In this document: in pieces, positions 1 to 43,274 of the stretch
Numbering within the stretch: position 1 is the stretch's first letter
Layout of the letters: every line of letters starts with the position of its first letter
Source of the DNA: an uncultured Planctomycetia bacterium
GTDB taxonomy: Bacteria; Planctomycetota; Phycisphaerae; FEN-1346; JAACEH01
Assembly (NCBI GenBank): GCA_903929765.1
Contig: CAIYVX010000039.1
Span: 32,573-96,572, forward strand
Reading direction: 5' to 3'
DNA length: 64,000 nucleotides
Translations under genes and position numbers: made by a program
The notes under the pieces: generated by a model
Databases searched by the model: none
Told to the model about the DNA's origin: nothing
The model's input: only the letters and a program-made list of their open reading frames with translations

Positions 1-1251
1 CTCGCGGCTCGCCTTCACCGTCTCCTGCAACGTCTTCTGTTCCGTCTCCATCACCGCCATTTTCTCCATCTCTTCCTTCACCGCCACCAGCAGCGTCGTC
101 AGCCGCCCGCGCTGACCCTCCGGCAGTGTCGCCTGCCGCTTCAGCATCGAATCCAACTTCGCCCGATCCGACTTCATCCGCTCCCCCAACTCCTCCATCT
201 CGCGCTCCAGTTGCCCCAGCCGACGCTGCGTCGGACGGTCGTAACCCACCACCACCGTCGTCCGTTGACCTGTCGCCGAGCCGATCATCGCCGCCTCCAC
301 CCCGTTGCGCGCCTCCACCGTGCTCGCCGTCAGCGCACCCGGCGTCACCACCCGGCCCGCCGTCACGATCTTCGCGTTCACCGCCTCTTTCTGCACAAAC
401 ACGTCGCCACCAGCCGTCAACGTCGCATTGTCCACAAACCGCGCCTTCACCCCGCCGCCCACCGTCACCACCGCCTTCTCCTTGCCCGCCACGCCGCCAC
501 CCGCCACCAACTCCCCGCCCACCTCGATCCGCGCCGCCTCGATCACGCCGCGCACCACCAGGTCGCGCGAACACTTCACCGCGAACAGATCCAGCACGTT
601 CCCGCCCACCAGCACGTCGCCGTCAAAATTCACGTTCCCCACCTGAAAATCCACGTTCCGCGCCACCGTCAGCAGCGGACTGATCCAGACCCGCTGCTGC
701 ACCACGTTCAACCGCCCCCCGATCTTCGCCCGCACCTGGTGCGAATTGTTGTCTTGCTCCACGCTATCTCCGAATTGCAGCGCCACCCGCCGCCCCTTCC
801 GCTGCGGTATCTCGCGCCCGCAAATGTTCCGTCCCGCTTGCCCCTCCGTCGGCGGCGCCACCGTGCAGATCACCGCTCCCGCCGACACGCTCACAATGTT
901 GCTCCGGGCGTAATGATTCACCATGTCGCCCGCCTCCCCGCTCGCCGTCTGCTTCGCCGGATCGCACTCCGGCATCCACTCCACTATTCCGTCCTTTCCG
1001 TTCACCGCCGCCACGCCTTCCGCCAGCACCACGTCCTCCGTCGGAACTTCCCCCGCCCGCACCCGCGCCGCCAGCGCCGCTATTCGCTTTTGAACCCCCT
1101 CGTCCACCACCACCTCATACGCCTCCAGCGCCGCCCGAAGATTCTGTTCCGAATACGCCTCCCGATCACCCACCGCATTGACGCGCACCCACGCCCGCAG
1201 CTTATCCGGGCCGATCACCACTTCCGTCATTACCGCCTCGTTCGCCATCTA
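1..1251 (-). CDS. DUF342/FapA-like protein (flagellar-assembly-protein-A family); 3' part runs off window start
   Basis: Manual reverse-complement translation starts at ATG 1249-1251 (MANEAVMTEVVIGPDKLRAWVRV...). It has strong GC3 bias and C-terminal beta-helix-like repeats (VDFQVGNVNFDGDVLVGGNV...). It is absent from the ORF track because it lacks a stop inside the window. Confidence 0.45.
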
Positions 1252-1261
1252 CCTGCCTCCG

Positions 1262-1500
1262 TTTGCTTCTTCTTCTGTTTCTTCACCCCTCCCCCTTGAG
1301 GGGGGAGGGTGGCCGCTTTAGCGGCCGGGTGAGGGTGCACCGGTTGCTCACAAATCGTTGCGAGCGTGCTGTTTCCGTTTCTTAGGCTTCTTCTGTTTCT
1401 TCACCCCTCTCCCTTGAGGGGGGAGGGTGGCCGCTTTAGCGGCCGGGTGAGGGTGCACCGGTTGCTTCAATATCACCGTGTGCTGCTGTTTCTGTTGCTG
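1262..1500. repeat. Tandem duplication (~118 bp x2), each unit carrying a family-A palindrome (CACCCCTCCCCCTTGAGGGGGGAGGGTG + GGCCGCTTTAGCGGCC)
   Basis: Units about 1265-1380 and 1383-1500 are near-identical and share CT-rich linkers. Confidence 0.8.
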
Positions 1501-1505
1501 CTGTT

Positions 1506-1536
1506 CCTTAAGCCTTAAGCCTAAGGCCTATAGCCT
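1506..1536. repeat. Family-H CTTAAG-palindrome element (CCTTAAGCCTTAAGCCTAAGGC)
   Basis: Related copies at 2482-2510, 10185-10205, 11264-11296 and 60571-60603, always just beyond a stop codon. Confidence 0.6.
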
Positions 1537-1695
1537 CTCCTCTTATTTTCGACCCTTCTTCCCCATCCGATTCAGCAAAACGCCCCCTCTTCCCCGCCCA
1601 AACCCCTCATTTTTCCCCCTATCCCATGGACCTCTCATTCCTTTCCTTGACACCCGCCCCGCCCACTCGTACAATCATCTCGGTCGTTGCTTTTT

Positions 1696-1750
1696 CACCC
1701 CTCTCCCTTGGGAGCGGGTGGCCCGAAGGGCTGGGCGAGGGGTTTAGGCC
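1696..1750. repeat. Family-A palindromic element (CACCCCTCTCCCTTGGGAGCGGGTG + GGCCCGAAGGGC)
   Basis: Core CCCCTCTCCC-TTG/AGG-GGGAGAGGGG palindrome. About 20 copies in the window. Confidence 0.8.
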
Positions 1751-1792
1751 ACGGCCCGCCCGAAATTTATATCCTCACAAAGGAAACTTGCC

Positions 1793-2380
1793 ATGGATGT
1801 TAAATCTGGTTTTACCGGTCTCGCCTGCCTCGCCGCCGTCGCCCTCGGTGCCGTCCTGTTCGTCGTCGCCCTCTGGTTCATCTTCGCCTACAACGGCCTC
1901 GTCCGACTCCGCAACACCGTCAAGGAAGCCTGGGCCCAGATCGACGTCCAGCTCAAGCGCCGCTGTGACCTCATTCCCAACATCGTCGAGACCGTCAAGG
2001 GCTATGCCGCCCACGAACGCGAAACCCTCGAAAACGTCGTCAAGGCCCGCCAGGCCGGCCTCTCCGCCACCGGCGTCAAGGAACAGGCCGAAGCCGACAA
2101 CATGATCACCGGCGCCCTGGGCAAACTTTTCGCCCTTTCCGAAGCCTACCCCAATCTCAAAGCCAACGAAAACTTCCTCGCTCTCCAGGAAGAACTCAGC
2201 TCCACCGAAAACAAAATCGCCTTCTCCCGCCAATACTACAACGACAGCGTCCGGACCTTCAACACCAAGATCCAGGTCTTCCCGACCACCATCGTCGCCG
2301 GCCTCTTCCACTTCCAGCCCGCCGATTTCTTCGAAGTCACCGACGCCGCCCAACGCGAAGCCCCAATAGTTAAGTTCTAG
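1793..2380 (+). CDS. lemA: LemA family membrane protein
   Basis: N-terminal TM helix then YNGLVRLRNTVKEAWAQIDVQLKRRCDLIPNIVETVKGYAAHERETL, a typical LemA core. RBS AAAGGAAA upstream. Paired with a downstream HtpX-like gene as is common. Confidence 0.9.
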   Translation: MDVKSGFTGLACLAAVALGAVLFVVALWFIFAYNGLVRLRNTVKEAWAQIDVQLKRRCDLIPNIVETVKGYAAHERETLENVVKARQAGLSATGVKEQAEADNMITGALGKLFALSEAYPNLKANENFLALQEELSSTENKIAFSRQYYNDSVRTFNTKIQVFPTTIVAGLFHFQPADFFEVTDAAQREAPIVKF

Positions 2381-2430
2381 TAGGGTGCGTGCTGGCACGC
2401 ACCATGTAGGGTGGCTGCTTGCAGCCACGC
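2379..2430. repeat. Family-G hairpins (GGGTGCGTGCTGGCACGCACC + GTAGGGTGGCTGCTTGCAGCCACGC) overlapping lemA stop
   Basis: The same TGTAGGGTGGCTGCTTGCAGCCACGC occurs at 9853-9880 after the stop of 7984..9849. A related TGTAGGGACAGGGTTCTACCCTGTCC sits at 33425-33452 after the MBL-hydrolase stop. Confidence 0.7.
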
Positions 2431-2531
2431 GGAAAATAACTCCGTTTTCCGATTTGCGTTGCCGTTGCTTTTTTTTTTCCTGAAGCCCGAAGCCTGAGGC
2501 CTGAAGCCTCTTTTTCCGTCCGAGCCTTCCG

Positions 2532-3578
2532 ATGGCCAGTTTCGATGCCCTCATCGGCGAAAACAAACGCAACACGGTCCTCCTCGTGGCCGTGGTCACT
2601 CTCGTCTTTTGCCTCCTCGCCGCCGCCATTGGACTCGTCGTTTTCGGCTGGGAATCCCAGTCCCAAAATGTTACGGTCATGTCCCATAGCAGAACGTATC
2701 ACGACGTAATTGAAGCACATCAGGAGTACCAAGGCCCCTCCTTCGCCTTCGTCCTCGCCATCTCCATCGGCGCCGCCATCGCCGTCGCCGCCATCATGAC
2801 CCTCTTCTCCTACTTCGGCGGCGCCGCCGCCCTCATGGCCGTCAGCCACGCCCGCGAAATCCAGAAGTCCGACGACCCCCAGCTCTGGAACGTCATCGAA
2901 GAACTTTCCCTCGCCGCCGGCCTCCCCATGCCGCGCGTCTACCTCATCGACGAACCCGCCATGAACGCCTTCGCCACCGGCCGCGACCCCAAACACGCCG
3001 CCGTCGCCATCACCGCCGGACTCCGCCAGAAACTCACCCGCGACGAGCTTCAGGGCGTCATGGCCCACGAACTTTCCCACGTCCGCAACTACGACATCCG
3101 CCTCACCATGTTCGCCGCCGTCATGGCCGGCGTCGTCGTCCTCATGGCCGACTTATTTCTGCGCTACCTCTGGTTCGGCGGCGGACAGCGCCGCGACTCC
3201 AACTCGCGCGGCGGAAACCCCCTCCAACTCATCCTCCTCATTTTTGCTATTGTTCTGGCCATCCTTGCGCCGATTTTTATCAAGATCATCCAGCTCGCCA
3301 TCAGCCGCCAGCGCGAATACATGGCCGACGCCGCCGGGGTCGCCCTGACCCGTTACCCCGAAGGGCTGATCTCCGCCCTCCGAAAACTCGAAACCGACGA
3401 GGAACCCCTTCATGCCGTGACCAGGGCCACCGCCCATCTCTTTATCGTCAATCCTCTCAAGGCCGAAGACCAGCGCTCACACCTCAAGGCTTCCAACCTC
3501 TTCCAGACTCACCCCGACCTCGAGGACCGTATCGCCCGTCTTCAGTCCATCGGAACCGCCGCCGCCCCAGGAAAATGA
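2532..3578 (+). CDS. htpX: M48 family zinc metalloprotease (HtpX-like)
   Basis: HEXXH motif (MAHELSHVRNYD), multiple TM segments, and the LemA-HtpX gene pairing. Confidence 0.85.
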   Translation: MASFDALIGENKRNTVLLVAVVTLVFCLLAAAIGLVVFGWESQSQNVTVMSHSRTYHDVIEAHQEYQGPSFAFVLAISIGAAIAVAAIMTLFSYFGGAAALMAVSHAREIQKSDDPQLWNVIEELSLAAGLPMPRVYLIDEPAMNAFATGRDPKHAAVAITAGLRQKLTRDELQGVMAHELSHVRNYDIRLTMFAAVMAGVVVLMADLFLRYLWFGGGQRRDSNSRGGNPLQLILLIFAIVLAILAPIFIKIIQLAISRQREYMADAAGVALTRYPEGLISALRKLETDEEPLHAVTRATAHLFIVNPLKAEDQRSHLKASNLFQTHPDLEDRIARLQSIGTAAAPGK

Positions 3579-3582
3579 TCTT

Positions 3583-4470
3583 ATGAACCTCCGCTCTTCG
3601 CTTATCGCTTCTTTTTCTAAACTCTGCACTTCTCTGGGGGTGCCACACTTTGGCCCCGGCTGTTCGGGGCAAAGTGTGTGGAATCACGGCCAACACAAGC
3701 CGCATCGCTCCTTCGCCGTTTTTTTTAAATTTTTAATTTTTAATTTTTCATTTTTAATTCTCTTCTCCGCCTCCGGCTGCCAGCCGAATAACGTCGTCGA
3801 CTCCGTCCCACCGCCCCTCGTCTCCCATACCAAGCCCTGGGCTTCCCTGGAAATCCCGCACCCCATGCCCGCCCCGTCCCGCACCCCCGCCCAACTTCCC
3901 GCCGCCCAACGCGCCCCGCTCCAGAAGGTTCCCGCCGCCGCCACCCCGCTCTCCGCCCCCAATCCCGCCTGGATCGCCGCCGATCCCGGTAAATGGCAAT
4001 ACATCATCATCCACCATTCCGCCGAACCTAACGGCAGCGCCTCCACCTGCGACCGCGCCCACCGCCAGCGCGGCTGGGACGAACTCGGCTACCACTTCGT
4101 CATCGGCAACGGGTCCCTCACCCCCGACGGACTCGTCGAAATCGGCCCGCGCTGGTGGCAGCAAAAGCACGGCGCCCATTGCCGACCCTCCCCCACCGAC
4201 GACAACCACTGGAACGAGCACGGCATCGGCATCTGCCTCATCGGCAACTTCGACAAGCGCCGCCCCTCCGAGGCCCAACTCGCCAGCGCCGCCCAACTCG
4301 TCGCCTGGCTCATGCGCCAGTGCAACATCCCCCCCGACCACGTCTACGGCCACGGCGGCGTACCCTGCGCCCGCACCGATTGTCCCGGCAAATATTTCCC
4401 CCTCGGCGAACTCCTCCGCCGCGCCGCCGCCATCAACGCCTCCTACCTCACCTCCACCTCCGCCCGCTGA
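3583..4470 (+). CDS. N-acetylmuramoyl-L-alanine amidase (Amidase_2/PGRP domain), secreted/lipoprotein-like; start uncertain
   Basis: KWQYIIIHHSA...GYHFVIGNGS...GICLIGNF motifs. The conserved Cys (FSASGC) aligns with the lipobox Cys of the paralog at 4958. The N-terminal region contains repeat elements D1 and F1. Confidence 0.75.
   Translation: MNLRSSLIASFSKLCTSLGVPHFGPGCSGQSVWNHGQHKPHRSFAVFFKFLIFNFSFLILFSASGCQPNNVVDSVPPPLVSHTKPWASLEIPHPMPAPSRTPAQLPAAQRAPLQKVPAAATPLSAPNPAWIAADPGKWQYIIIHHSAEPNGSASTCDRAHRQRGWDELGYHFVIGNGSLTPDGLVEIGPRWWQQKHGAHCRPSPTDDNHWNEHGIGICLIGNFDKRRPSEAQLASAAQLVAWLMRQCNIPPDHVYGHGGVPCARTDCPGKYFPLGELLRRAAAINASYLTSTSAR
3637..3685. repeat. Family-D hairpin (GCCACACTTTG-GCCCCGGC..GCCGGGGC-CAAAGTGTG)
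   Basis: Copies at 9957-10008, 43135-43180, 43201-43247 and 59071-59122. Confidence 0.8.
3722..3760. repeat. Family-F AT-rich element (TTTTAATTTTTCATTTTTAATT)
   Basis: Copies at 7845-7887 and 43813-43860, plus an inverted copy at 57706-57735. A striking AT island in a 65% GC genome. Confidence 0.75.
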
Positions 4471-4474
4471 TCTT

Positions 4475-4840
4475 TTGTCGTTGCCGTTTCTTCTTCACCC
4501 CTCCCCCTTGAGGGGGGAGGGTGGCCGCTTTAGCGGCCGGGTGAGGGTGCACCTGTTTCAATCAAATCACCTGAAGACATGTTGCTTCTTCTGCTGCTGT
4601 TTCCCCGATTACCCCTGCCGCCGGATGGCCTGGTCCGGCGAAGTGTACAGACCATGAAGAGCAACCGTTCGATCGGAAGCCGTTGTTGTTTCTTTTTCAC
4701 CCCTCTCCCTCGGGAGAGGGTGGCACGAAGTGCCGGGTGAGGGGTTGATGCCCTTGCCTCCACAATCTCGCAATGCTGCTGTTTCTGTCCTTCATGATTG
4801 GATATTGAGTGTTGGATATTGGATATTCGCCATTGCTGTT
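4475..4840. repeat. Composite intergenic array: A4 (4496-4552), B1 (4621-4690), A5 (4698-4755), E1 (4793-4833), separated by CT-rich linkers
   Basis: Family B is GGTGGCATGGTCCGGCGAAGACGGGCCATGAAGAGCAACCGTTCGATCGGAAGCCGTTG. Family E is ATTGGATATTGAGTGTTGGATATTGGATATTCGCC. Confidence 0.8.
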
Positions 4841-4957
4841 GCCGTTACTGTCCACTGACCACTGCACACTCACCACTATTTCTTCAATTCCCCCGCCCCA
4901 CTCCGCCGATACAATAACCATATCCGTCCGATAACCCGGCCGGTCTTAGGTGACTCC

Positions 4958-5593
4958 TTGTTCTCTCCGAAAACTCTTCTCGCCGCGCCGCTCCTGCTTC
5001 TCGCCCTCGTCTTCGCCGGCTGCGGCCCCAACGTCGCCCTCGTCGACAATGTCCCTCCGCCCGCCTTCGGCACGCGTCAGATCATCGCCCGGCCCAGCGG
5101 CGGCCCTTCCGTCGCCCCGCCCACCCGCGCCGGCGCCTGGGTTCCCCCCGTCCCAGAAAGAAAATGGCGCTACATCATCGTCCACCACTCCGCCTCGCCC
5201 ACCGGCAGCGCCGCCATGTTCGACCGCGAACACCGCGAGCATCGCGGCTGGAACGAGCTTGGCTACGATTTTGTCATCGGCAACGGTTCCCTCACCGGCG
5301 ACGGCCAGGTCGAAGTCGGCCCGCGCTGGCTCAAGCAAGTCACCGGCGCCCACACCGGCGTCCACGACCATCCCGAATTCAACGAGTTCGGCGTCGGCAT
5401 CTGCCTCGTCGGAAACTTCGACCTCGGCCGCCCCACCGAGGCCCAGCTCCAGAACCTCGCCACGCTCACCCGCTGGCTCATGCAACGCTACAACATTCCC
5501 AAGTCCCGCGTCCTCGGCCACGGCATGCTCAAACCCACCGACTGCCCCGGCAAACTCTTCCCCTGGGACGACTTCTACCGCCGCCTTAACTGA
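4958..5593 (+). CDS. N-acetylmuramoyl-L-alanine amidase (Amidase_2/PGRP domain) lipoprotein
   Basis: Signal peptide with lipobox-like LVFAGC, followed by YIIVHHSA...GYDFVIGNGS...GICLVGNF. Paralog of 3583..4470. Confidence 0.8.
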   Translation: MFSPKTLLAAPLLLLALVFAGCGPNVALVDNVPPPAFGTRQIIARPSGGPSVAPPTRAGAWVPPVPERKWRYIIVHHSASPTGSAAMFDREHREHRGWNELGYDFVIGNGSLTGDGQVEVGPRWLKQVTGAHTGVHDHPEFNEFGVGICLVGNFDLGRPTEAQLQNLATLTRWLMQRYNIPKSRVLGHGMLKPTDCPGKLFPWDDFYRRLN

Positions 5594-5599
5594 AAATTT

Positions 5600-5810
5600 C
5601 ATCCGCCGTTGTTGTTGTTTCTTCAACCACACTCCTAACGTTGGGTGGCATGGTCTGGCGAAGACAGGCCATGAAGATCAACCACTCGACCGGAAGCCGT
5701 TGTTGTTTCTTCACCCCTTCCCTCGGTTGAGGACTTCTCGTCACCACCGCCCGAGCAGAATCCGCACTTCATGATTGGATATTGAGTGTTGGATATTGGA
5801 TATTCGCTGT
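5600..5810. repeat. Composite array: B2 (5641-5712), degenerate A, E2 (5770-5808)
   Basis: Same B -> A -> E module order as 4621-4833. Confidence 0.75.
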
Positions 5811-5893
5811 TTTTCTTCTCTTCACCAAACGCCAAAAAACACGGGCCGCGACGTTCTCCGCCGCGGCCCGCTTAATCTATCAATCACCTGAAA

Positions 5894-7189
5894 CTATCGT
5901 CCCGCCGCCACCACTTCCACCTTGCTCGCCTCCACCACCCACATATTCAAATCCGCTCGGTTCCGCTTCACCCCCCATACCTTCACCTTCAGTCCCAGCA
6001 ACTGGTCCAGTTGCGCCACGTCCCCGTTCAGCAGGCAAACGTATCGCCCTTCCGCGTTTTCCAGCCGGTACGAATAACCCATCGTCGCCGTCATCTTCCG
6101 CAACACCCCCTCGAAGTCCGGCTGAATCACCGAACTCCGACCCGCGGCCTCCGCCTCGCGCTTGGCCTGGTCTTTCGCCGCCGCCTCCTGAATCTCCGCC
6201 AGTTTCTTCGCCGTCTCCTCGCGCTCCGCCTTCTGCTTCTCCAGACCCTGCTGCAGCGCCTTCTGGAACTCGATCTGCTTGAGCGCCCGCGTCGCCGCCT
6301 CGCTCAGGTAATCCGCCTTCGCCTTATCCTTCACGTCGCGCAGCGAATCCACCAGCTCCGCGCTGAACTTTCGTTCCGCCAGCGGCTTCGCCAGCTCCGT
6401 CTCCAAATCCCCCGCCGCCTTCTCATACGCCGGCGTCTCTGGATCCAATTCCACCGGCTTGATCTCCGGCAACTTCACGCTCAGACCCGTCCCCGAAGAG
6501 GCCTCTCGGCTCCCGCGCGACACCGGCACCAAAAATTCATCCTTCACGTAAACCGTCGCTCCCTCCGGCAGCGCCACCGTGTAATACGGCCCCTCCTCGC
6601 CCTTGATCGTCACCGCCGTCTCCGCCGGCAACTGACCGATCACCGCCCACGTCCGGTCGCTACCAGGATCCTTCGCATACACCCGCGCCATCGTCGCCGT
6701 CACCGTCCCGCTCTTCGACGACGCCGGATCGCTCTTCACGTCGTCCTTCTTCACCAGCGCCGCCACGTTCAACTTCCCCGCACCCGTGATCGCGCTCCAC
6801 CCGTCCGACTCCGACTCCACCCGCACCCGCGTCGCCTCTTTCACCAGCGCCACGTCATAATAATAAAGCCCCGGGCCGCTCCGCACGTGCACCGCGTCGC
6901 CCTTGATCTCCATGTCCCGCGGATACTCCGCCGGAGCCGCCGCCACGTCCGTTCCGCCCGTCGCCAGGGCGCCTTCCGCCGCTGCCGGATGCGCCGGCCG
7001 CGCCGCCGTCGCGCTCGAACCCGCCCGCGCTCTGGTCGCCGAATGGCTAGCCGTCGTCTTCGGCTTTGCCGTCGTCGTATGCGTCGTCGTCCGACCTGTC
7101 GCATGGGCCGGCGTTGCCGATGTCGCCCCCCACGCCCCCGATGCCGACAAAACCAGTGCCCCCACGCTTAGTAAAATTGCTCGAATCAT
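5894..7189 (-). CDS. Secreted protein with two bacterial SH3-like domains and a coiled-coil C-terminus (hypothetical)
   Basis: Signal peptide MIRAILLSVGALVLSASGAWG. Two SH3b-like segments (VHVRSGPGLYYYDVALV..., YAKDPGSDRTWAVIGQLPAETAVTIKGEEGPYYTVALPEGATVYV). C-terminal region rich in K/E/A. Start chosen at the Met preceding the signal peptide. Confidence 0.55.
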   Translation of the reverse strand: MIRAILLSVGALVLSASGAWGATSATPAHATGRTTTHTTTAKPKTTASHSATRARAGSSATAARPAHPAAAEGALATGGTDVAAAPAEYPRDMEIKGDAVHVRSGPGLYYYDVALVKEATRVRVESESDGWSAITGAGKLNVAALVKKDDVKSDPASSKSGTVTATMARVYAKDPGSDRTWAVIGQLPAETAVTIKGEEGPYYTVALPEGATVYVKDEFLVPVSRGSREASSGTGLSVKLPEIKPVELDPETPAYEKAAGDLETELAKPLAERKFSAELVDSLRDVKDKAKADYLSEAATRALKQIEFQKALQQGLEKQKAEREETAKKLAEIQEAAAKDQAKREAEAAGRSSVIQPDFEGVLRKMTATMGYSYRLENAEGRYVCLLNGDVAQLDQLLGLKVKVWGVKRNRADLNMWVVEASKVEVVAAGR

Positions 7190-7369
7190 GGCCCCTGCCC
7201 TTTCCCTCTTCACGAGACTATGCCGCTTGTAACTTGTTCTTAATGAATTGCATAACACCCCGTGCAACGCCATCCAGACTACCACCCCCCTGCCAAACCG
7301 TCAATAGAAATTGGCCGCACCCTTGCAACCCCTTCCCCGCCCCGCTATCATCACCCCCGTAGTTGCTGT

Positions 7370-7600
7370 TTTTTCTGTTTCACCCATACCTTGGCCGGTG
7401 GGTGGCATGGTCCGGCGAAGACGGGCCATGAAGAGCAACCGTTAGATCGGAAGCCGTTGTTGTTTCTTCTTCACCCCTCTCCCTTGGGAGATAGTGGCAC
7501 GAAGTGCCGGGTGAGGGGTTTAGGCCCTTGCCCGCCCGAACGGATTCTGACTTCATGATTGGATATTCGTTATTCGATATTCTGCGGTTCGCCGTTTCTT
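7370..7600. repeat. Composite array: B3 (7399-7470), A6 (7482-7540), E3 (7553-7590)
   Basis: Third instance of the B -> A -> E order. Confidence 0.8.
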
Positions 7601-7788
7601 CCCCGGCGCCCTGGCGGGATAGGCTACCGAACCTCTCCACGCTCTCCGCCGCGTCCTGGCCGTCCGGCTCAGGCCCCATGTTCCTCCTCGCCCTCCTCGC
7701 CGCCGCCGTCCTCCTCCTCATTCTCCTCCTCCGCTGGCTCCTCTCCCGCTCGCGCCGCCGACCTTAAAATCTGATTCTCTTCGGCTTT

Positions 7789-7890
7789 TGAGGCCCCCAG
7801 CATTGCTGGGAGATGCCATTGTTTCTGTTGTTTTTGCCGTTTCTTTTCAATTTTTCATTTTTCATTTTTAATTTTTCATTTCACCTTACC
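7789..7890. repeat. C1 hairpin (GAGGCCCCCAGCATTGCTGGGAGATGCC) plus F2 AT-rich element
   Basis: Family C is GAAGCCCCCAGCACTGCTGGGGGATGCCGTTTCTTC. Copies at 10036-10075, 13396-13437, 33601-33645 and 33738-33776. Confidence 0.75.
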
Positions 7891-7983
7891 CCTCGCCCCC
7901 CCTCCTTTTTTCTTGAAATTATCGTACCGTTTCTCCGTTACAATACATCACAAGGAGCCAACTGTCTCTTTAGGAGAACCGTC

Positions 7984-9849
7984 ATGAGTACCTTGTCCCG
8001 TACCGCCGCACTTGTCTCTCTCGCCTTACTCTGTGCTTTCGCTGCTCCGGCTTTCGCCATGAGCCGCGGCCACGAGGCCCCCCTGCCCCCGCCCGGTGTC
8101 CAGGTCGCCGGCGTCGAAGTCCTGACGCGCGGCCCCATCCACGAAGCCTTTGCCGAACCCGTTATCTTTGACCCTGCCGCCGGTCTCATCGTCCCCGTCG
8201 CCCCGCCCGCTCCCATCAACGAATCCGCTCCGGAAATGGGCCCCGCCACTCCCGGCATGTCCTGGATCCCGGGCTACTGGGCCTGGGACCAGGATCGTAA
8301 CGGCTACATTTGGATCAGCGGCGCCTGGCGCCTGGCGCCGCCCAATTGTGCCTGGGTTCCCGGCTACTGGACTCCCGTCTCCAACGGCTACCAGTGGGTC
8401 GCCGGTTTCTGGCTCCCGGGCAACGCCCAGGAAGTCACCTACCTCCCCGACCCGCCGCCCTCTCAGGACATCGGACCCATCGGCCTCGCCCCCTCGCCCG
8501 ACACCGTCTGGATTCCCGGCGTCCAGGTCTGGCAGGGCCGGGGCTACGCCTGGCGACCCGGCTACTGGGCCGCCGCTCAGGCCAACTGGCTTTGGAACCC
8601 CGCCCACTACGCCTGGACCCCGCGCGGCTACATCTTCATCGACGGCTACTGGGACTATCCCCTCTCGCACCGCGGCGTCCTCTTCGCCCCCGCCGCCATC
8701 GAAGCCTCCGTCTACGGCGCCCCGGGCTTCGATTACACCCCCTCCGTCGTCCTGACCAGCGACATCTTTGAAGGCGCCTTCTTCACCTCGCCCGGTTATT
8801 CCACCTACTATTTCGGCGACTACTACGACGACTCCTACAGGACGCGCGGCATCTACCCCTGGTACTCCTACAGAGATCGACACGACTGGTACGATCCCAT
8901 CTACGCCCATCGCGAGTGGAACCACCGCTCCGACAATCCCAACTATGACCGCGACCAGAGACAGCTCTTCTCCTCACGGCAGTCCAACGTCAGCCTCCGA
9001 CCAGCCCGCACCTACAACGCCGAAGTCGACCGCCTCAGGAACCATCCCGAACTCACCGGCCGCTCACCCGCCATGTCCCAGCGAGCCAACGAGGCCGCCG
9101 CCGCTCGCAACACCGCCGCCGTTCCACTGGGCAGGTTGAACACCCAGGACCGCTCCCAGGGCGCCGCCGTCGAACAACAGGTCCATTCCTACACGCAACA
9201 GCGCACCAAATGGGAAGCCCCCGCCACCCAGCCCTCACGCAACGAACGCCCCGCCGTGCAGGAACGTCCCGCTGTCCAGCCCGCCGTCACCCAGCCCGCA
9301 CGCAACGAACGCCCCGCCGTCCAGGAACGTCCCGCCGTCCAGCCCGCCGTCAGGCCCGCCGTCAGGCCCGCCGAGCGACCGGCCGTTCAAGAGCGACCCG
9401 CCGTCCAGGAACGACCTGCCGTCCAGCCGCATCCCGCCGTCCAGGAACACCCGGTTGTCCAGGAACGACCTGCCGTCCAACCGCACCCCGTCGTCCAGGA
9501 ACGACCTGCCGTTCAGGAACGCCCCGCCGCTCAGCCCGCCTCCAGGCCTACCGTCCAGGAGCGTCCCGCCGCACCAACTCGCACCGCTCCTCCCGAGCGA
9601 GTCGCCATCCCGACCTCGCCCGTCCGTGGTCCGACTGTCCAACATGGTACTCCCAACCTCCCCGCCAGACCCGAGGCCCCGGCCCCTCGCGCCGCTCCGG
9701 TCGCTCCCGCTCCTCATGCCGCGCCGCCTGCTCCAGCCGCTCCGGCTGCTCCGGCCGCCCCGACCGCTCCCGCTCCTCATGCCGCCCCGGCTGCTCCGGC
9801 CGCCACTCCGACTCCGGATCATCAGGATCATGGCAACAAGCATAACTGA
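7984..9849 (+). CDS. Secreted YXWGXW-repeat protein with Pro-rich hexapeptide tandem-repeat tail
   Basis: RBS AGGAGA and signal peptide MSTLSRTAALVSLALLCAFAAPAFA. Repeated PGYWxW...GYxWxxGxW units follow. The C-terminal portion carries (ERPAVQ)n and AP-rich low complexity. Confidence 0.6.
   Translation: MSTLSRTAALVSLALLCAFAAPAFAMSRGHEAPLPPPGVQVAGVEVLTRGPIHEAFAEPVIFDPAAGLIVPVAPPAPINESAPEMGPATPGMSWIPGYWAWDQDRNGYIWISGAWRLAPPNCAWVPGYWTPVSNGYQWVAGFWLPGNAQEVTYLPDPPPSQDIGPIGLAPSPDTVWIPGVQVWQGRGYAWRPGYWAAAQANWLWNPAHYAWTPRGYIFIDGYWDYPLSHRGVLFAPAAIEASVYGAPGFDYTPSVVLTSDIFEGAFFTSPGYSTYYFGDYYDDSYRTRGIYPWYSYRDRHDWYDPIYAHREWNHRSDNPNYDRDQRQLFSSRQSNVSLRPARTYNAEVDRLRNHPELTGRSPAMSQRANEAAAARNTAAVPLGRLNTQDRSQGAAVEQQVHSYTQQRTKWEAPATQPSRNERPAVQERPAVQPAVTQPARNERPAVQERPAVQPAVRPAVRPAERPAVQERPAVQERPAVQPHPAVQEHPVVQERPAVQPHPVVQERPAVQERPAAQPASRPTVQERPAAPTRTAPPERVAIPTSPVRGPTVQHGTPNLPARPEAPAPRAAPVAPAPHAAPPAPAAPAAPAAPTAPAPHAAPAAPAATPTPDHQDHGNKHN
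9238..9585 (+). repeat. Intragenic 18-nt tandem repeats (GAACGNCCNGCCGTCCAG) encoding (ERPAVQ)n within the YXWGXW protein gene
   Basis: About 15 units, including a 63-nt higher-order duplication (RNERPAVQERPAVQPAVTQPA x2). Confidence 0.85.
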
Positions 9850-9852
9850 AGT

Positions 9853-10200
9853 ACTGTAGGGTGGCTGCTTGCAGCCACGCAGAAGTAAAACGCCAAAGGC
9901 CGCCCCAAGTTTCTCTTGGAGCGGCCTTTGCTTTTGCCTTGGCCGTTTCTTTTTCCGGGTGCCACACTTTGAAGCCCCGGCGCTTCGCCGGGGCCAAAGT
10001 GTGTGCTTCTTCTTTTTCTTCTTCTTCTTTTTCTTTTGAAGCCCCCAGCAGTGCTGGGGGATGCCGTTTCTTCTTCTGTTGCTGCTTCTTCACCCCTCTC
10101 CCTTGAGGGGAGAGGGTAGGGTGAGGGTGCACCTGTTGCTCCCATATCGCTGGGGGTTGCCGTTTCTTCTCCTTCTTCTGTTCCTTCGGCCTGAAGCCTG
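9853..10200. repeat. Composite array: G2, D2 (9957-10008), C2 (10036-10075), A7 (10091-10132), H3 (10185-10205)
   Basis: Five different repeat families concatenated with CT-rich linkers between two convergent genes. Confidence 0.8.
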
Positions 10201-10202
10201 CT

Positions 10203-11054
10203 TCACTTCTCCGTCTTCGGATCAAACGCATCCCTTAGCCCATCACCCACAAAATTCATGCACAACAACGTTAGTCCCAAAAATAAACACGGAAAAAACA
10301 GCAGCCACCAGCAATTCACCACCGGGTTCACCGCGTCCACCGCGTCGCTCGCCAGCGTCCCCCAGCTCGCCTGCGGCGCCGACACCCCCAACCCCAGAAA
10401 ACTCAAAAACGATTCCTGCAAGATCGCCGCCGGTACCGTCAGCGTCGCACAAACAATAATCGGACCCACCAGGTTCGGCAGCAGGTGCCGAACCAGGATC
10501 CGCCCCGGCCCCGCCCCCAGCGCCCGCGCCGCCGTCACATACTCCTCCTGCCGCAGCCGCAGCACCTGGCCGCGCACAATCCGCCCCATCGTCAGCCACG
10601 ACACCGCCCCGATCGCCACGAACAGCACCCAGAACTTCTGCTGCGCATAGACCAGCAGCAAAATCACCAGCAATATATATGGCAATCCATACAGCGTATC
10701 CACCACCCGCATCATCCAGCGGTCCGTCGCCCCACCCGCCTGACCCGCAATCGCCCCGTAAAACGTCCCGATCACCACGCTCACCGCCGCTGCCGCCAGC
10801 CCCACCACCAGCGATATCGCCCCGCCCGCCAGCGTCCGCCGCAGCAAATCCCGACCGTTCGTGTCCGTCCCGAACGGATGCGACCGCGACGGACTCCACG
10901 GGTGCGGCTGACCCACCGCCGCCTCTTCCGCCTTCGACACCCCCGCCCCCGCCTCCGTCGTCGCCGCCGTCACAAAACACGCCGCCGCCACCACCGCCAG
11001 CACCACCACACCCCCCAAAGCCGCCCGGTTCGACCTGAACCGCCGCCAAGCCAT
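10203..11054 (-). CDS. ABC transporter permease, DppC/OppC (BPD_transp_1) family
   Basis: HPFGTDTNGRDLLRR and EYVTAARALGAGPGRILVRHLLPN signature with six TM segments. No partner dppB/D/F genes adjacent. Confidence 0.85.
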   Translation of the reverse strand: MAWRRFRSNRAALGGVVVLAVVAAACFVTAATTEAGAGVSKAEEAAVGQPHPWSPSRSHPFGTDTNGRDLLRRTLAGGAISLVVGLAAAAVSVVIGTFYGAIAGQAGGATDRWMMRVVDTLYGLPYILLVILLLVYAQQKFWVLFVAIGAVSWLTMGRIVRGQVLRLRQEEYVTAARALGAGPGRILVRHLLPNLVGPIIVCATLTVPAAILQESFLSFLGLGVSAPQASWGTLASDAVDAVNPVVNCWWLLFFPCLFLGLTLLCMNFVGDGLRDAFDPKTEK

Positions 11055-11079
11055 CTCCAGCGGACTCCGCCCCGGTTTT

Positions 11080-11296
11080 GATTTTGTTGCTTTTTCTTCT
11101 TCATCCCTCGCCCCAGACGATGGGTGGCATGGTCCGGCGCAGACGGGCCATGAAGAGGAAACCGTTCGACTGGAGGCCGTTGCTTCTTCTTCACCCCTCT
11201 CCCTTGAGGGGAGAGGGTAGGGTGAGGGTGTTGCTGTTTCTTCTGCTTCTTCTTTTGTTGCCGTGCCTTAAGCCTTAGGTCTTAAGCCTTAAGCCT
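11080..11296. repeat. Composite array: B4 (11122-11195), A8 (11202-11230), H4 (11264-11296)
   Basis: Lies between the dppC-like gene start and the groES stop. Confidence 0.8.
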
Positions 11297-11585
11297 ATTT
11301 CTCAATCTTCGCCAAAATATCCGTCTCGTGCAGCACCACGTACTCCGTGCCGTCGATCTCGACTTCGGTCCCCGAATACTTGGCATACAGCACGTCGTCG
11401 CCCTTGGCCACGCTCATCTTGGCCCGCTCGCCGTTTTCCAACAGCTTGCCGGGGCCGGTGGCGATGACTTTGCCGCGCTGCGGCTTTTCCTTCGCCGTGT
11501 CGGGCAACACAATCCCGCCCGCCGTCTTCTCTTCCGCTTCCACCTGCTCGATTACCACGCGATCATCCAACGGTTTCAGTGCCAT
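11295..11585 (-). CDS. groES: Co-chaperonin GroES
   Basis: 96 aa: [46 protein letters not shown]... Confidence 0.95.
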
Positions 11586-11672
11586 AGCTTCAAATCTCCT
11601 GAGTTTGGTTTTCTCTTTCTAATTATCGTTTCCCGGCGAAACATGGCCGCAAGCGGCCATGCCACCCGTTTT

Positions 11673-13364
<1,692 letters not shown>

Positions 13365-13395
13365 CATTGTTTGTGAGTCCTCCGTTTTTGTTGTT

Positions 13396-13492
13396 AAAGC
13401 CCCCAGCGCTGCTGGGGGACGCCGTTGTTTCTTCTTCTTCACCCCTCTCCCTTGGGAGAGGGTGCCGCTTTAGCGGCGGGTGAGGGGTTGAT
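13396..13492. repeat. C3 + A9 elements immediately upstream of groEL
   Basis: GCCCCCAGCGCTGCTGGGGGACGCC followed by CACCCCTCTCCCTTGGGAGAGGGTG and GCCGCTTTAGCGGC. Confidence 0.8.
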
Positions 13493-13796
13493 GACTATAA
13501 CCTCCACGCTCACTGCCAAGCAGCGCAGCATACATCTTTCGCTGGCTTAAGAAAAGCAAAAAATGTGCCAGAGCCGTTCTCTTTGAACCCGGGTGGTCTG
13601 GCGGCCGCTGTTTGCCGCCATGTTTCGCCGATAATTTCACCCAACCGCGAACCAGTTGAAAGTCCGCAGTCTGCCACTTTGGCAGTGGCGGGGCTGGGCG
13701 GGCGGCCTGGTTTGGCAGGCGACTGATCGACTGAAACGCTCTTCTTCTTAAACGGCTTGGCCCGTATACTGATAGAAGGCAGCGACCGAGGGAGCT

Positions 13797-14868: not shown

Positions 14869-14912
14869 CTTCATAATTGGATATTGAGTGTTGGATATTG
14901 GACATTCGCCGT
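14869..14912. repeat. Family-E element copy E4
   Basis: TTCATAATTGGATATTGAGTGTTGGATATTGGACATTCGCC. Confidence 0.75.
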
Positions 14913-21909: not shown

Positions 21910-22229
21910 TCAGAGGGTTTTTGGCTCCCCGGCCTGGACGCTCTGCGGAACAATCGCACGGTCAAGTCGATGCTTCTGTCGAAATTACGAAGAGACGCCG
22001 CCGGGCCTTTTCATAGCCCAATACCGCAAGCTGGGTTGAAGCAGGGCGGGGTTCTTTGCCACGATAAATTTGCTCCAACGTGGTTTTTAGGTTATAATTC
22101 CGCCAGGAATTTATGGTGTGTCTTCATTCACCCGGGGATTGCGGTTCGGCACGCTTCAGAGCTTGGCTCAGCGCCGACGGCCGCAGTCCCCGGTTCTTTG
22201 CCGTAGCCGCAAGAGAAGGAAGGCGAAAC

Positions 22230-24208: not shown

Positions 24209-24486
24209 GCCCGGTTATCCACAAACTGCGTGCCGCACAGGGGCATTTCGCCACTTTTCGCGCAAAATTCTCCAAATGTCCGGCATGAAAATAGCGAATG
24301 CGACTCTAACCTCTTGTGCCACAATGTGTTATGGCTGATCGCAGCCACATCGACAGGTAACAATTATTTCATTTTGGCCGAAAAGCCGGCCAATTCTCCG
24401 CTTTCCGGCCCATTGTCCACAGGTTATCCACAAAACAGCACCGCCCGGCGGGGCCGGGGCATCAACGGCACATATAACCTCTGTTG

Positions 24487-27523: not shown

Positions 27524-27542
27524 GGCGGCAATCTTTGCTGTT

Positions 27543-27600
27543 ACCCCTCTCCCTTGGGAGAGGGTGGCCCTTCAGGGCCGGGTGAGGGGTTTATGCCCTT
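27543..27600. repeat. Family-A element A10
   Basis: CCCCTCTCCCTTGGGAGAGGGTGGCCCTTCAGGGCCGGGTGAGGGG. Confidence 0.8.
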
Positions 27601-27650
27601 GCCCTCAAATTCGTTCAAGTGACAGGCTGAGAATAGTTTTCATATACGCG

Positions 27651-32785: not shown

Positions 32786-33430
32786 TTGAAAATCGAAATT
32801 CTCGCCATCGGTGCGTTCGACGCCAACTGCTATCTCCTGATCGCCGAAGACGGCCGCCAGGCGATCCTCATCGACGCCCCGGACCCGATTGAACCGATGA
32901 TCGATCTGGCGGCGCGACTCGGCGTGGTTCCCGAACTTCTCGTCCACACCCACGGCCACGTCGATCACATGGCCGGCAACGAAGCCCTGAAGCGCCGCTG
33001 GCCCAACCTGAAGATCGCCATCCACGAGGCCGATGCGGCCATGCTCGAATCGCCGCAGTGGAATCTTTCGGCCCTTTTCGGCGAAGGCGCCACCAGTCCC
33101 CCGGCCGACCGCCTGCTCAAGGACGGCGACAAAATTTCTCTCGGCGACGAAACCCTCGAAGTTCTCCACACCCCCGGCCACACCGCCGGCTGCATCTGCC
33201 TTTACCTGGCCCGCCCAAAAAACTCCGGGCCGCCGCTGGTCATCACCGGCGACACCCTCTTCTCCGCCAGCATCGGCCGCACCGACTTTCCCGGCGGCAA
33301 CTCCCAACAACTCCTGCGCAGCATACGCACTAAGCTCCTCTCCCTGCCCGACGAGACCATCTGCTATCCCGGCCACGGCCCCCCGACCACCATCGGCCGC
33401 GAGCGCCGGGAAAATCCGTTTCTTTTGTAG
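32786..33430 (+). CDS. MBL-fold metallo-hydrolase (glyoxalase II-like)
   Basis: HTHGHVDHMAGN and HTPGHTAGCI motifs. Likely TTG start at 32786, preceded by AGAGG RBS (KIEILAIG...). Confidence 0.85.
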   Translation: MKIEILAIGAFDANCYLLIAEDGRQAILIDAPDPIEPMIDLAARLGVVPELLVHTHGHVDHMAGNEALKRRWPNLKIAIHEADAAMLESPQWNLSALFGEGATSPPADRLLKDGDKISLGDETLEVLHTPGHTAGCICLYLARPKNSGPPLVITGDTLFSASIGRTDFPGGNSQQLLRSIRTKLLSLPDETICYPGHGPPTTIGRERRENPFLL

Positions 33431-33480
33431 GGACAGGGTTCTACCCTGTCCGGCAGTTTCTTTTGCCGTTGATGTTTCAC

Positions 33481-33645
33481 CGTGGCACGGGCGTCCCGCC
33501 CGTGAGTCGCAGGGGCATCTTACCCCTGTGCCGTCGCCGTTTCTTCTTCACCCCTCCCCCTTGAGGGGGGAGGGTAGGGTGAGGGTGTTGCTTCTTTTTA
33601 TGAAGCCCCCAGCACTGCTGGGGGATGCTGTTTCTTCTTCTCAGC
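33481..33645. repeat. Array: I2, A11 (33549-33588), C4 (33601-33645)
   Basis: See families I, A and C. Confidence 0.75.
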
Positions 33646-33792
33646 CGCGTCGCGGCGTCTGGAAGTAGCCACGCGGCGCAAGCCCGTGGTCCCCGAACGC
33701 GAGAAATAATTTTTTTTCTTCTTTTTCTTCTTCTTTTGAAGCCCCCAGCACTGCTGGGGGACACCGTTTCTTCTATTTTTCATTGCAGGGCC

Positions 33793-38079: not shown

Positions 38080-38253
38080 TCTCTCTCTTATCTGTCACGC
38101 TTTACTTCGGTTGACGAATGGCCATAGTGACGAGCAGGGCGAGCCACAAGGCGTAAACGGTTGCGGCGACGAGAAACGGGCGGCGCGAAACGGGCGGCGG
38201 AGTTTTTTGGTTCTCGCGCATCGGAACTTTGTCCTGTGGCGAGAGGTGGGTTG

Positions 38254-38445: not shown

Positions 38446-38459
38446 ACAGCAAACGACCG

Positions 38460-43247: not shown

Positions 43248-43274
43248 CTCTTCCGGGGGTTTTCATAAACTTGT

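Follow-up and report, generated by a model that had tools for sequence, protein, structure and literature searches.

The window analysed here, a 64,000-nucleotide stretch of DNA from an uncultured Phycisphaerae-like planctomycete, carries intergenic mosaics of short repeat modules, of which this genome shows about 22, with module coordinates set by profile HMMs. One of these mosaics begins just after the amidase stop codon (4468-4470) with a pyrimidine-rich junction, GTTGCCGTTTCTTCTTC (4480-4496, + strand), which also follows the orthologous stop codon in a sister species. On the same strand lie an A1 copy of module A (4493-4551, core 4499-4547), a predicted BoxC/TM-type triplex motif with a GC mini-hairpin in its second loop; a diverged copy of module B, with hairpins P1 and P2 and a tail (4604-4694); an A3 copy (4695-4752, triplex-motif core 4701-4743); a second junction, GCTGCTGTTTCTGTCC (4774-4789); and module E (4790-4830), made of AT-rich TTGGATATT direct repeats. 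A second composite, also on the + strand, consists of B (5625-5711), a degenerate A that has kept CACCCCTTCCC and the 3' extension and lost its purine blocks (5712-5766), and an E (5767-5807) identical to the first at 41 of 41 positions. The third lies downstream of a promoter-like site (7323-7351) and comprises B (7379-7468), an A3 (7469-7526) with the 3' extension GGGGTTTAGGCCCTTGCCCGCCCGAA (together 7469-7545), and a diverged copy of E, termed E' (7551-7590), all on the + strand.

An earlier, sequence-only reading had placed the succession B, A, E at 4621-4833, 5641-5808 and 7399-7590, joined by CT-rich linkers. The succession is real, with limits at 4604-4830, 5625-5807 and 7379-7590, and the linkers are present at 4480-4496 and 4774-4789. 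B followed by A recurs within a few bases of the three other positions given in that reading. At 11101-11228 (+), antisense to both neighbours (an ABC permease gene and groES, both on the - strand), B (11101-11191) precedes an A2 with a 2-nt loop, TA (11189-11228, core 11195-11228). On the - strand, the pair runs from 38392 to 38253 within an A2-B-A3 array (38253-38445; B 38306-38392, A 38253-38310), and from 55573 to 55439 as a B-A3 array (55439-55573; B 55494-55573, A 55439-55496). One more B (63922-63999, -) has no A after it and an A2 before it, just past the window end, as seen in contig L089.

Among the remaining arrays, those on the left are on the + strand: A1-A1-D followed by a promoter and A3 (1281-1750, with the A3 at 1693-1750 in the LemA 5' UTR), C-A2 (10036-10128), C-A3 upstream of groEL and antisense to it (13394-13495), an E standing alone (14869-14909), a single A3 antisense between two - strand genes (27541-27597), and I-J-A2-C-X-C (33427-33790). 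Further right, the - strand carries A2-A3 (44683-44816) and two arrays that each lie antisense between two + strand genes, A2-F (57707-57822) and A2-D (60570-60680). Two single A3 copies on the + strand, at 45115-45171 and 47870-47923, are exceptions to the orientation on this side.

Module A, present in 18-20 copies in the 64 kb, is built of three blocks, a pyrimidine CCCTCNCCC, a complementary purine GGGNGAGGG and a third, G-rich GGGTGAGGG. It comes in two structural variants defined by the second loop, which has 2 nt in A2 and forms a 14-17-nt GC mini-hairpin in A1 and A3. In the window, the C-rich 9-nt CCCTCNCCC followed after 3-6 nt by GGGNGAGGG occurs in 16 exact copies, or 18 when one mismatch per block is allowed. 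The third, G-rich block GGGTGAGGG is found on the same strand in all 18, and the 5' flank CTTCACC can pair with it too. Between copies, the A hairpins show compensatory change from T.A to C.G. This arrangement resembles the published BoxC/PIT/TM_ECO pattern, CCCTCNCCC N3-6 GGGNGAGGG N3 GGGNGAGGG, reported from 262 proteobacterial genomes (PMC4666352). With the second loop relaxed, the pattern fits 16-18 window copies; the published 3-nt second loop (TTA or CCG) occurs in none of them, 2-nt TA in 7 and the 14-17-nt GC hairpin in 9-11. Because this loop is never 3 nt long, the window copies are variant forms of the motif. The three-block layout also occurs in Azospirillum, Rhizobium, Enterobacter and the E. 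coli phnD-phnE region, whose copy fits the published pattern, and a blastn alignment of the junction and A3 with Azospirillum spans 60 nt at 84% identity (E = 6e-8). Judged from these alignments, module A is an intrastrand triplex motif of the BoxC/PIT/TM_ECO type, homologous to the proteobacterial copies. All seven A2 copies also fit the canonical G-quadruplex pattern; the three-block mirror layout and the TM_ECO homology make the triplex the better-founded reading. A3 had no match in the viral contigs scanned.

Like BoxC/PIT/TM_ECO (Bergler 1992; Hoyne et al. 2000; Holder et al. 2015, PMC4666352), module A has the block order CCCTCNCCC, loop, GGGNGAGGG, loop, GGGNGAGGG, is significantly similar to proteobacterial copies, and is intergenic, repeated and linked with local rearrangement between relatives. 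It departs from them in the second loop, 2 nt or a 14-17-nt mini-hairpin rather than 3 nt, and in residing in a planctomycete rather than in Proteobacteria. It is also roughly 60-fold denser, with 18-20 copies per 64 kb compared with 23 in the 4.6 Mb of E. coli K-12 (PMC4666352). In E. coli the motif is strand-unbiased and unlinked to mobile elements (PMC4666352), and it often forms inverted pairs (types A and B), whereas the copies here are single and unidirectional, and none of those in the window forms an inverted pair. They sit within arrays that share a pyrimidine junction, preferentially after module B.

Module B consists of two adjacent hairpins, P1 (CCCNCCC/GGGTGG) and P2 (CATGGTCCG/CGGGCCATG), plus the tail, and module E, whose direct repeats form repeat family D12, has no hairpin. 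The main stem of B contains 11 G.T pairs compared with one A.C, an excess that the strong pyrimidine bias of the strand, rather than selection for the fold, could in part have caused. The top strand folds better in 10 of 12 B copies and 17 of 20 A copies. A GTAG tag is absent from A, B, C and E and is carried only by the hairpins H (2380, 2406, 9856), I (33427) and X (33665). Modules B and E are lineage-specific. Compared with plasmids they gave no meaningful match, the exact B pattern had no match among GTDB species representatives, and a metagenome scan matched five short contigs. The pairing of A with B is likewise specific to the lineage: neither module was found in 1.2 Mb of unrelated loci, and a search for the locus based on LemA returned only distant phyla, at 64% identity or less. 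Four contigs of distant relatives (L094-L097; GroEL 80-84%) lack A, B, C and E and carry only the GTAG hairpin H, in inverted pairs. A literature search with the raw module sequence strings gave no relevant match.

The modules follow one another in a non-random order. When the 58 module tokens were redistributed at random over the genome's 22 arrays, B followed by A was observed six times compared with 1.76 expected (p = 8e-4), and the triple B, A, E three times compared with 0.07 (p = 1e-5), so the recurrent order proposed from sequence alone exceeds chance. Since the three triples lie less than 3 kb apart and are related copies, they are not three independent events. C followed by A, A2 by D and A2 by B are further recurring successions. 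The modules are also found apart: A occurs 13 times without B, and 3 of 12 B copies lack A. The joint between A and E takes two forms, abutting directly at 5760 and 7545 and mediated by the junction at 4753-4789. We conclude that E is separable from B and A, that the triple is a local subfamily confined to 3 kb, and that the composite of B, A and E is not a bounded 200-bp element.

A single pyrimidine junction, GYYGTTTCTTC, terminates or flanks every kind of module. Allowing one mismatch, it occurs at 33 sites, a seven-fold excess over shuffled sequence (4.8 +/- 2.0; 33 was reached in 0 of 100 shuffles). It is asymmetric, unlike the short inverted repeat that flanks NIMEs, and its CTTCACC part belongs structurally to A, which it accompanies in Alphaproteobacteria too. 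B and A behave as one block-copied unit. Two subfamilies, B-A3 and B-A2, are each 84-89% identical over B, junction and A, both across loci and in contigs of other organisms; copies W5 and W3 agree at 89% over this length, as do W7 and L082, the latter from a different organism and a different locus. One B-A3 block is inserted in frame in a TauE gene, at the central loop of the protein, which has 304 aa compared with 262-276 aa in homologues. The TauE site had no pre-existing array. Elsewhere, 60570-60680 (-) is complementary to 11175-11244, in an array 49 kb away, at 96% over 70 nt. A metagenome contig joins these two arrays.

Comparison with the sister species reveals turnover at orthologous sites, among them the M48-amidase site and the region upstream of groEL. 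The position that follows the amidase stop codon holds A1 in this genome and A3 in the sister species; before the amidase gene, G is set against C, and before groEL, C-A3 against other hairpins. The A3 in the LemA 5' UTR has no counterpart in the sister species. The amidase N-terminus contains another in-frame repeat insertion, in addition to the TauE copy. The lone E at 14869 is kept at the orthologous site upstream of a gene, which suggests that some modules may have taken on a function in cis.

Within the window, arrays run strictly head to tail, and their orientation is independent of transcription: in co-directional intergenic regions they are sense in five cases and antisense in five. 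Twelve consecutive + arrays extend to 33.8 kb, beyond which most are -, and the junction motif follows the same division (24 of 25 + on the left, 7 of 8 - on the right). The first orientation switch coincides with the minimum of the cumulative GC skew near 36 kb. The polarity has exceptions, namely + copies at 45115, 47870 and about 66.1 kb. An origin or terminus could not be placed in the window, as the sole DnaA-box cluster (24.2-24.4 kb) lies away from the switch and GC3 skew does not change there. An origin or terminus would be expected only rarely in a random 64-kb window. Module-rich DNA has an extreme C/G skew, independent of gene orientation.

How should these patterns be explained? 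Chance accumulation of independent repeats, or misassembly of a repeat-rich metagenome contig, is barely credible. Repeat-rich genomes do misassemble, contig L001 is chimeric or rearranged, having been joined across A2 copies, and the three triples sit close together. Counter to this, an independently assembled contig (L088) covers 3177-5723 gap-free at 99.9%, which refutes the artefact for that segment, five further contigs (L089-L093) match other parts at 100%, the order statistics are far from chance, and B-A blocks recur in the contigs of other organisms. The sequence-only reading also suggested a structured RNA gene family. On such an account, sRNA genes or a cis-acting leader or trailer (a stabiliser, terminator or riboregulator) would be transcribed in the CU-rich orientation. 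Arguing for it are the stable local hairpins and the G.U pairs that favour the CU-rich strand, the sigma-70-like promoter of LemA (TTGACA-17-TACAAT) with A3 just downstream in the leader, the similar site at 7323-7351 with B-A3-E' just downstream, and the position of E, which in five of six cases precedes a co-oriented gene by 70-130 nt. However, modules run antisense to the genes on both sides at 11101-11297, 27541-27597, 47870-47923, 57707-57822 and 60570-60680; neither a promoter nor a terminator belonging to the modules was detected; and module content differs at orthologous sites. In Rfam searches at the gathering threshold and at E <= 1, only tRNAs reached threshold and the composite had no match even at E <= 1 (best sub-threshold E = 0.2-0.3). 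The whole composite folds no better than shuffled sequence (z -1.3 to -1.7), so it has no significant global fold, and module A has the sequence of a purine-motif triplex, a structure reported to be unable to form in RNA (PMC4666352). A terminator, a hairpin with a U-rich tail, was rejected, since half of the copies that are informative lie antisense. We regard an RNA family as improbable. The same reading also suggested a non-autonomous mobile element of about 200 bp. Non-random assortment and block copying of B with A bear out part of that idea; an element with conserved termini is not supported. A classical MITE, derived from an IS with a DDE transposase and bearing terminal inverted repeats and target-site duplications, would agree with short, non-coding, repeated, intergenic sequences that are present or absent between relatives, with one copy within a gene. 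Yet there are no terminal inverted repeats: B begins CACCCNNACC...GGGTGGCATGG and E finishes GGATATTCGC, and the ends of B are unrelated to those of both E and A. No flanking direct duplication is recognisable at the LemA 5' UTR or TauE site, where the flanks are too diverged for exact boundaries, and no insertion boundary or empty site was obtained at nucleotide resolution. The modules are moreover GC-rich and occur independently and in other orders. A classical MITE is largely refuted, and we consider it very improbable.

Two other explanations were considered. The junction could be recognised by a site-specific recombinase of the tyrosine or serine type, or be a hotspot for homologous exchange, at which modules are shuffled as cassettes in the manner of NIMEs. 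One junction flanks all module kinds, and the content of sites is replaced rather than merely gained or lost (A1 for A3, G for C, C-A3 for other hairpins); the near-identity of the two arrays 49 kb apart and the metagenome contig that joins them point the same way. Against it, the junction is degenerate, asymmetric and low in complexity, and lacks dyad symmetry, unlike known core sites. In addition, the window holds no recombinase gene, CTTCACC is structurally part of A and travels with it in Alphaproteobacteria, and the TauE copy entered a site without a prior array. On this evidence cassette exchange seems unlikely, if worth keeping in mind. Alternatively, the repeats may be selected signals of polarity or chromosome architecture, KOPS-like or related to replication or segregation, in which case selection, and not the mechanism of insertion, would keep their orientation. 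Uniform orientation over tens of kilobases regardless of gene strand, and the switch near the GC-skew minimum, would fit such signals. So would two putatively KOPS-like words: the complement of the junction contains GAAGAAG, which orients FtsK in Lactococcus, and A1 and A2 contain GGGNAGGG, FtsK-orienting in E. coli. The exceptions at 45.1, 47.9 and 66.1 kb argue otherwise, and signals of this kind are normally short words spread across genes, not structured intergenic modules of 40-90 nt. We consider selected signals quite improbable.

Looking across the entire analysis, the arrays are best read as DNA-level mosaic repeats of the BIME, NIME and BOX kind, copied in blocks, and as neither an RNA gene nor a classical transposon. 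The NIMEs of Neisseria are said to have been described by Parkhill in 2000. They likewise form arrays of varied 50-150-bp units with one short conserved flank and cassette-like replacement (PMC3049150), but a phage integrase uses their flank, dRS3, which is an inverted repeat, whereas the pyrimidine tract that forms the flank here is asymmetric. The streptococcal BOX elements (boxA-boxB(n)-boxC; PMC3049150) are similar in having modules of about 50 nt in a preferred order, some lost or multiplied, and occasional insertion into an ORF. In BOX, however, boxA and boxC pair into a MITE-like stem with an IS-similar terminal inverted repeat, whereas B and E here are unpaired and there is no significant global fold. 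The palindromic elements of Rickettsia place a repeat in frame in protein genes, where it is tolerated in a loop. The in-frame copies in TauE and the amidase N-terminus are comparable to these elements (mentioned in PMC3733652), but the sequences are unrelated and the copies here are mostly intergenic. Enterobacterial BIMEs (REP/PU) and REP/REPIN-RAYT systems are also high-copy intergenic mosaics of short imperfect palindromes with short conserved linkers, and GTAG-tagged hairpins (H, I, X) share the same arrays (PMC3733652). The sequence-only reading had set the composite apart from REP accumulation; accumulation is the nearest description after all, although one that follows a grammar. Differences from these systems are that REPs alternate in orientation within BIMEs, compared with strictly head-to-tail arrays here, and that no GTAG/CGTC tag stands at the hairpin foot in A, B, C or E; no RAYT (Y1 HUH) gene occurs in the 64-kb window. 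Finally, palindrome-associated elements of the IS200/IS605 type, which transpose as single-stranded DNA (PMC6006769), lack terminal inverted repeats and target-site duplications and have strand-specific imperfect hairpins beside a short conserved sequence. The repeats here are similar, with no target-site duplication recognisable, and their orientation could follow replication. Here there is no TnpA gene in the window, there are no defined left or right ends and no demonstrated target, and any likeness would be one of mechanism only.

On balance, we think that the arrays are probably non-autonomous DNA modules, mosaic and copied in blocks, with module A as a triplex motif and with copying by way of single-stranded DNA. 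These modules would act and multiply as DNA, one to three per block, most commonly as B with A, and as B, A and E in the local subfamily. We infer that copying is coupled to single-stranded DNA during replication, and that the shared junction has a role in it. One option is an HUH/Y1-type enzyme acting in trans; another is template switching where triplex or hairpin structures stall replication forks. Under both, the junction would serve as a recognition or microhomology site. Copying of single-stranded DNA with a shared junction would account for the strand-specific folds, the lack of inverted ends and a polarity that stays uniform for tens of kilobases. A mobilising activity is one that we purely infer, as inspection of gene content showed no transposase or recombinase gene in the 64-kb window.

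The BoxC/PIT/TM motif is found in hundreds of bacterial genomes, forms very stable triplexes in vitro and has been tied to local genome instability, yet its spread and function have gone unexplained for 30 years, and in E. coli it is sparse, orientation-unbiased and apparently static. The motif itself is thus already known; what is distinctive here is that it is dense (about 60-fold more so), one-directional within each array, present in two structural variants and often copied with a specific partner hairpin, with visible turnover between sister species and in-frame entry into genes. It is conceivable, if rather doubtful, that the motif is actively expanding in this lineage as a replication-polar, ssDNA-structured module, copied with partner hairpins via a shared pyrimidine junction, and that mosaic mobile elements of this ssDNA-based kind form a class not recognised so far; the same strand-specific process might then be a source of the C/G skew in module-rich DNA. 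The arrays explain the poor short-read assembly of the lineage and also give rise to spurious ORFs and chimeric contigs. The lineage offers a natural system in which to study the copying mechanism, whether by an enzyme or by fork-associated template switching, and to ask whether triplex-forming DNA has a polarity relative to replication.

The succession of modules B, A and E is a frequent phrase within an intergenic repeat mosaic, not a bounded element. The modules recognized in the sequence-only reading lie where it placed them, and their recurrent order holds: when module tokens were shuffled among the 22 arrays, 1.76 B–A successions were expected and 6 are present (p = 8e-4), and B–A–E occurs 3 times against 0.07 (p = 1e-5). 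Across the window and the related contigs L082-L086, A directly follows 9 of the 12 B copies. These blocks form two subfamilies, B|A3 (4604, 7379, 38392 and 55573, plus L086) and B|A2 (11101, plus L082 and L084), within each of which identity continues through B, the pyrimidine-rich junction and A. The B|A3 blocks at 7379 and 4604 are 89% identical, as are the B|A2 block at 11101 and that of L082, an unrelated locus in another organism. In L086 (497-615), a B|A3 block with a 5' CTGTTTC lies inside a TauE/SafE membrane-protein gene and leaves the frame open; the protein has 304 aa, compared with 262-276 aa in all homologues, with about 38 extra residues in a variable central loop.

The proposal of a larger composite unit thus stands in part: B|A blocks are conserved and the order is non-random, whereas E is separable, A often lacks B and the composite has no fixed bounds. 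All three B–A–E copies fall within 3 kb of one another. The A and E extensions abut directly in two of them (5760, 7545), and the junction separates A from E in the third. E occurs alone at 14869, where the orthologous site in the sister species keeps it; 13 A copies have no B; and C–A, A2–D and A2–B successions each recur three times. These observations, and composite copies with no terminal inverted repeats or recognizable target duplication, speak against a fixed element of about 200 bp and also weigh against a rival explanation of the arrays as a MITE.

Profile HMMs built from the copies count 7 B and 20 A in the window, but detect neither module in a 1.2-Mb set of loci drawn from other phyla and from relatives with 80-84% GroEL identity. 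Module A reads CCCTCNCCC, 2-6 nt, GGGNGAGGG, a second loop and GGGTGAGGG. The second loop is TA in A2 (7 copies) and a 14-17-nt G+C mini-hairpin in A1/A3 (9-11 copies), the latter varying between copies with compensatory changes. CTTCACC, which closes the linker and flanks A on its 5' side, is able to base-pair with GGTGAGG in the third block of A, so that part of the linker structurally belongs to the module. Module B consists of two adjacent helices: P1 (CCCNCCC/GGGTGG), rich in U.G pairs, and P2 (CATGGTCCG/CGGGCCATG), in which a T.G pair is conserved and a single compensatory change turns C.G into T.A. The 35-nt core of B hardly varies among 12 copies, which come from three or more genomes. 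Module E is made of AT-rich direct repeats of TTGGATATT and has no hairpin. The junction, GYYGTTTCTTC, ends B, C, E, J and A2 whether or not A follows, and occurs 33 times against 4.8 expected.

Families C, D, F, G, J and K and the GTAG-tagged hairpins H, I and X share the same arrays. Module G, a separate repeat family, is a long near-perfect hairpin of about 20 bp, CACACTTTG...CAAAGTGTG (3640-3690, 9958-10008, 43150-43250, 59066-59125; L084 4596-4640). GTAG-tagged REP-like hairpins (e.g. GTAGGGTGGCTGCTTGCAGCCACGC; 2380-2430, 9856-9882, 33427-33452, 33665-33690) are on the + strand throughout. The same hairpin forms inverted pairs in a more distant relative (L097, 11744-11798 and 15255-15312), which suggests that a canonical REP/RAYT system is also present in the lineage. 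A canonical G-quadruplex motif, with four G3+ runs and 2-3-nt loops, coincides with every A2 copy (10107-10127, 11208-11228, 33565-33585, 38407-38426, 44777-44797, 57785-57804, 60628-60648).

When the third composite was compared with plasmids by blastn, its junction and A3 matched Azospirillum (84% over 60 nt, E = 6e-8). In follow-up searches the A architecture recurred at as many as 26 sites on one replicon in Azospirillum, and in Rhizobium, Shinella, Sinorhizobium, Enterobacter and E. coli (median 3 per genome), for example in the phnD-phnE spacer. Copies in these taxa are mostly inverted pairs, as seen in Azospirillum, Rhizobium and E. coli (L099 1492-1655; L100 401-590; L103 401-490). The alphaproteobacterial copies carry a CT-rich 5' tail (CTGTTTTTCTTCTTC / TTGTTTCTCTCTT) resembling the planctomycete junction. 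This architecture is the BoxC/PIT/'TM_ECO' motif of Holder et al. 2015 (PMC4666352), published as CCCTCNCCC N3-6 GGGNGAGGG N3 GGGNGAGGG. Module A thus belongs, in variant forms, to that known family. For TM_ECO, a purine-motif intrastrand triplex of class II, that study lists 3610 copies in 262 proteobacterial genomes, and 23 copies in E. coli K-12; it describes the motif as intergenic, without strand bias or ties to mobile elements, highly stable in vitro as a single-stranded DNA triplex, and associated with local rearrangements (PMC4666352). For B and E the searches gave no match beyond this lineage.

Folding favours the top, pyrimidine-rich strand over the bottom one in 10 of 12 B and 17 of 20 A copies, and the main stem of B has 11 G.T pairs against a single A.C opposition, which indicates that one strand is the structured one. 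Array orientation is independent of transcription: between co-directional genes, five arrays are sense (3579-3770, 4471-4880, 38080-38459, 40765-41129, 44635-44830) and five antisense (11055-11294, 27524-27650, 47809-47930, 57707-57844, 60565-60695). The composite as a whole folds no better than shuffled sequences and has no Rfam match. Module A is a purine-motif triplex sequence, and triplexes of this kind are reported not to form in RNA (PMC4666352). Together with the antisense half of the informative copies, these results count against a structured RNA gene family, as the sequence-only reading had entertained, and argue for single-stranded DNA, not RNA, as the relevant form. They likewise weigh against the rival of a cis-acting RNA.

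Module orientation is uniform within each array. Twelve arrays are + up to 33.8 kb, followed by three -, two +, four - and one + near 66.1 kb (reached through contig L089): five runs versus about 10.5 expected for 15 + and 7 - arrays (our own calculation, z about -2.8). Cumulative GC skew reaches its minimum near 36 kb, at the place of the first switch, where an AT-rich intergenic stretch (36310-36500) carries several GGAAATT/AATTTCC repeats. The window's only DnaA-box cluster (24215-24432) lies in a 448-bp intergenic region. It has three boxes within 220 bp, all facing one way: the only two perfect boxes of the window (TTATCCACA) and a third that differs at one position. Skew and module orientation both stay unchanged there; the cluster could be oriC or a DnaA-regulated site. 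Within 1-11054, every gene, whichever strand is coding, has a + strand GC skew of -0.5 to -0.75 at third codon positions; from about 13 kb this skew is mild and follows gene strand. B-carrying contigs of relatives (L082-L087) have the same extreme C3 bias, and module density peaks where this skew is strongest.

As a stretch of bacterial chromosome the window is unremarkable (G+C about 62%); its identified genes include FapA, LemA, an M48 peptidase, two Amidase_2 paralogues, groEL/groES, hisD/hisB, thiG and helicases. Named homologues of GroEL and the amidase assign it to uncultured Planctomycetota, near Phycisphaerae. The species is otherwise found only as bog and peat metagenome contigs of 1-4.6 kb; independent assemblies of it recover 3177-5723 without gaps, so the module arrangement is not an assembly artefact. 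Compared with the sister species (L087 and L098, 85-89% nucleotide identity), modules turn over at fixed sites. The LemA 5' UTR has A3, just after a conserved promoter (TTGACA-17-TACAAT), only in the window; before the amidase, G+F in the window stands against C+F in the sister; upstream of groEL, C|A3 against unrelated hairpins; and behind the stop codon of the amidase the junction is common to both, with an A1-type motif in the window and an A3-type in the sister. The annotated amidase ORF begins upstream of modules G and F (3583-3770), both read in frame, where L087 (1977-2110) has C and F; module F, (AATTTTTCATTTTT)n, encodes the hydrophobic stretch before a lipobox (SASGC).

At 11295-13367, the gene order is groEL then groES; next come an array of modules and then an ABC permease, whereas groEL2-dnaJ-grpE continue in the relatives L094 and L097, placing a rearrangement breakpoint at the array. 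Contig L001 (ENA), which corresponds to 11175-11637 and 60612-61432 of the window, connects groES with hisD across two inverted A2 arrays (11.2 kb and 60.6 kb) that are 96% identical; it reflects either a genuine variant with a 49-kb inversion or a misassembly caused by the repeats. The lower-GC segment 44900-52600 carries four paralogous VWA-domain genes; it also holds both orientation-exception A3 copies (45115, 47870) and so may be acquired or inverted. Coding repeats also occur, as tandem 150-170-nt units in one gene (22113-24038) and Pro/Ala-rich 9- and 54-63-nt units in another (9218-9820).

We suggest that modules may be copied block-wise through single-stranded DNA at replication. Such copying would account for head-to-tail arrays, missing inverted termini, strand-specific folds, domain-wide polarity, module replacement at fixed sites and occasional insertion into genes. 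A trans-acting HUH/Y1-type enzyme might do the copying, for which IS200/IS605 and REP–RAYT offer a parallel (PMC6006769), or templates might switch where forks stall on triplex or hairpin folds; by either route the common junction would be a recognition or microhomology site. We infer the enzyme, the replication coupling and the role of the junction. The shared junction is also what a junction-specific, NIME-like recombination system would use, and the orientation runs could instead reflect selected polarity signals.

Intergenic mosaic repeats are a known kind, represented by BIME, NIME and BOX (PMC3049150) and by the REPs of Planctomycetes (PMC3733652); BoxC/TM, to which module A belongs, is itself known (PMC4666352). 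New are the phylum in which the motif occurs, a density of 18-20 copies in 64 kb, the variant with a hairpin in loop 2, strict unidirectionality, the pyrimidine junction common to the modules and the coupling of module A to a lineage-specific partner. These findings would gain interest if the polarity proves to be linked to replication.
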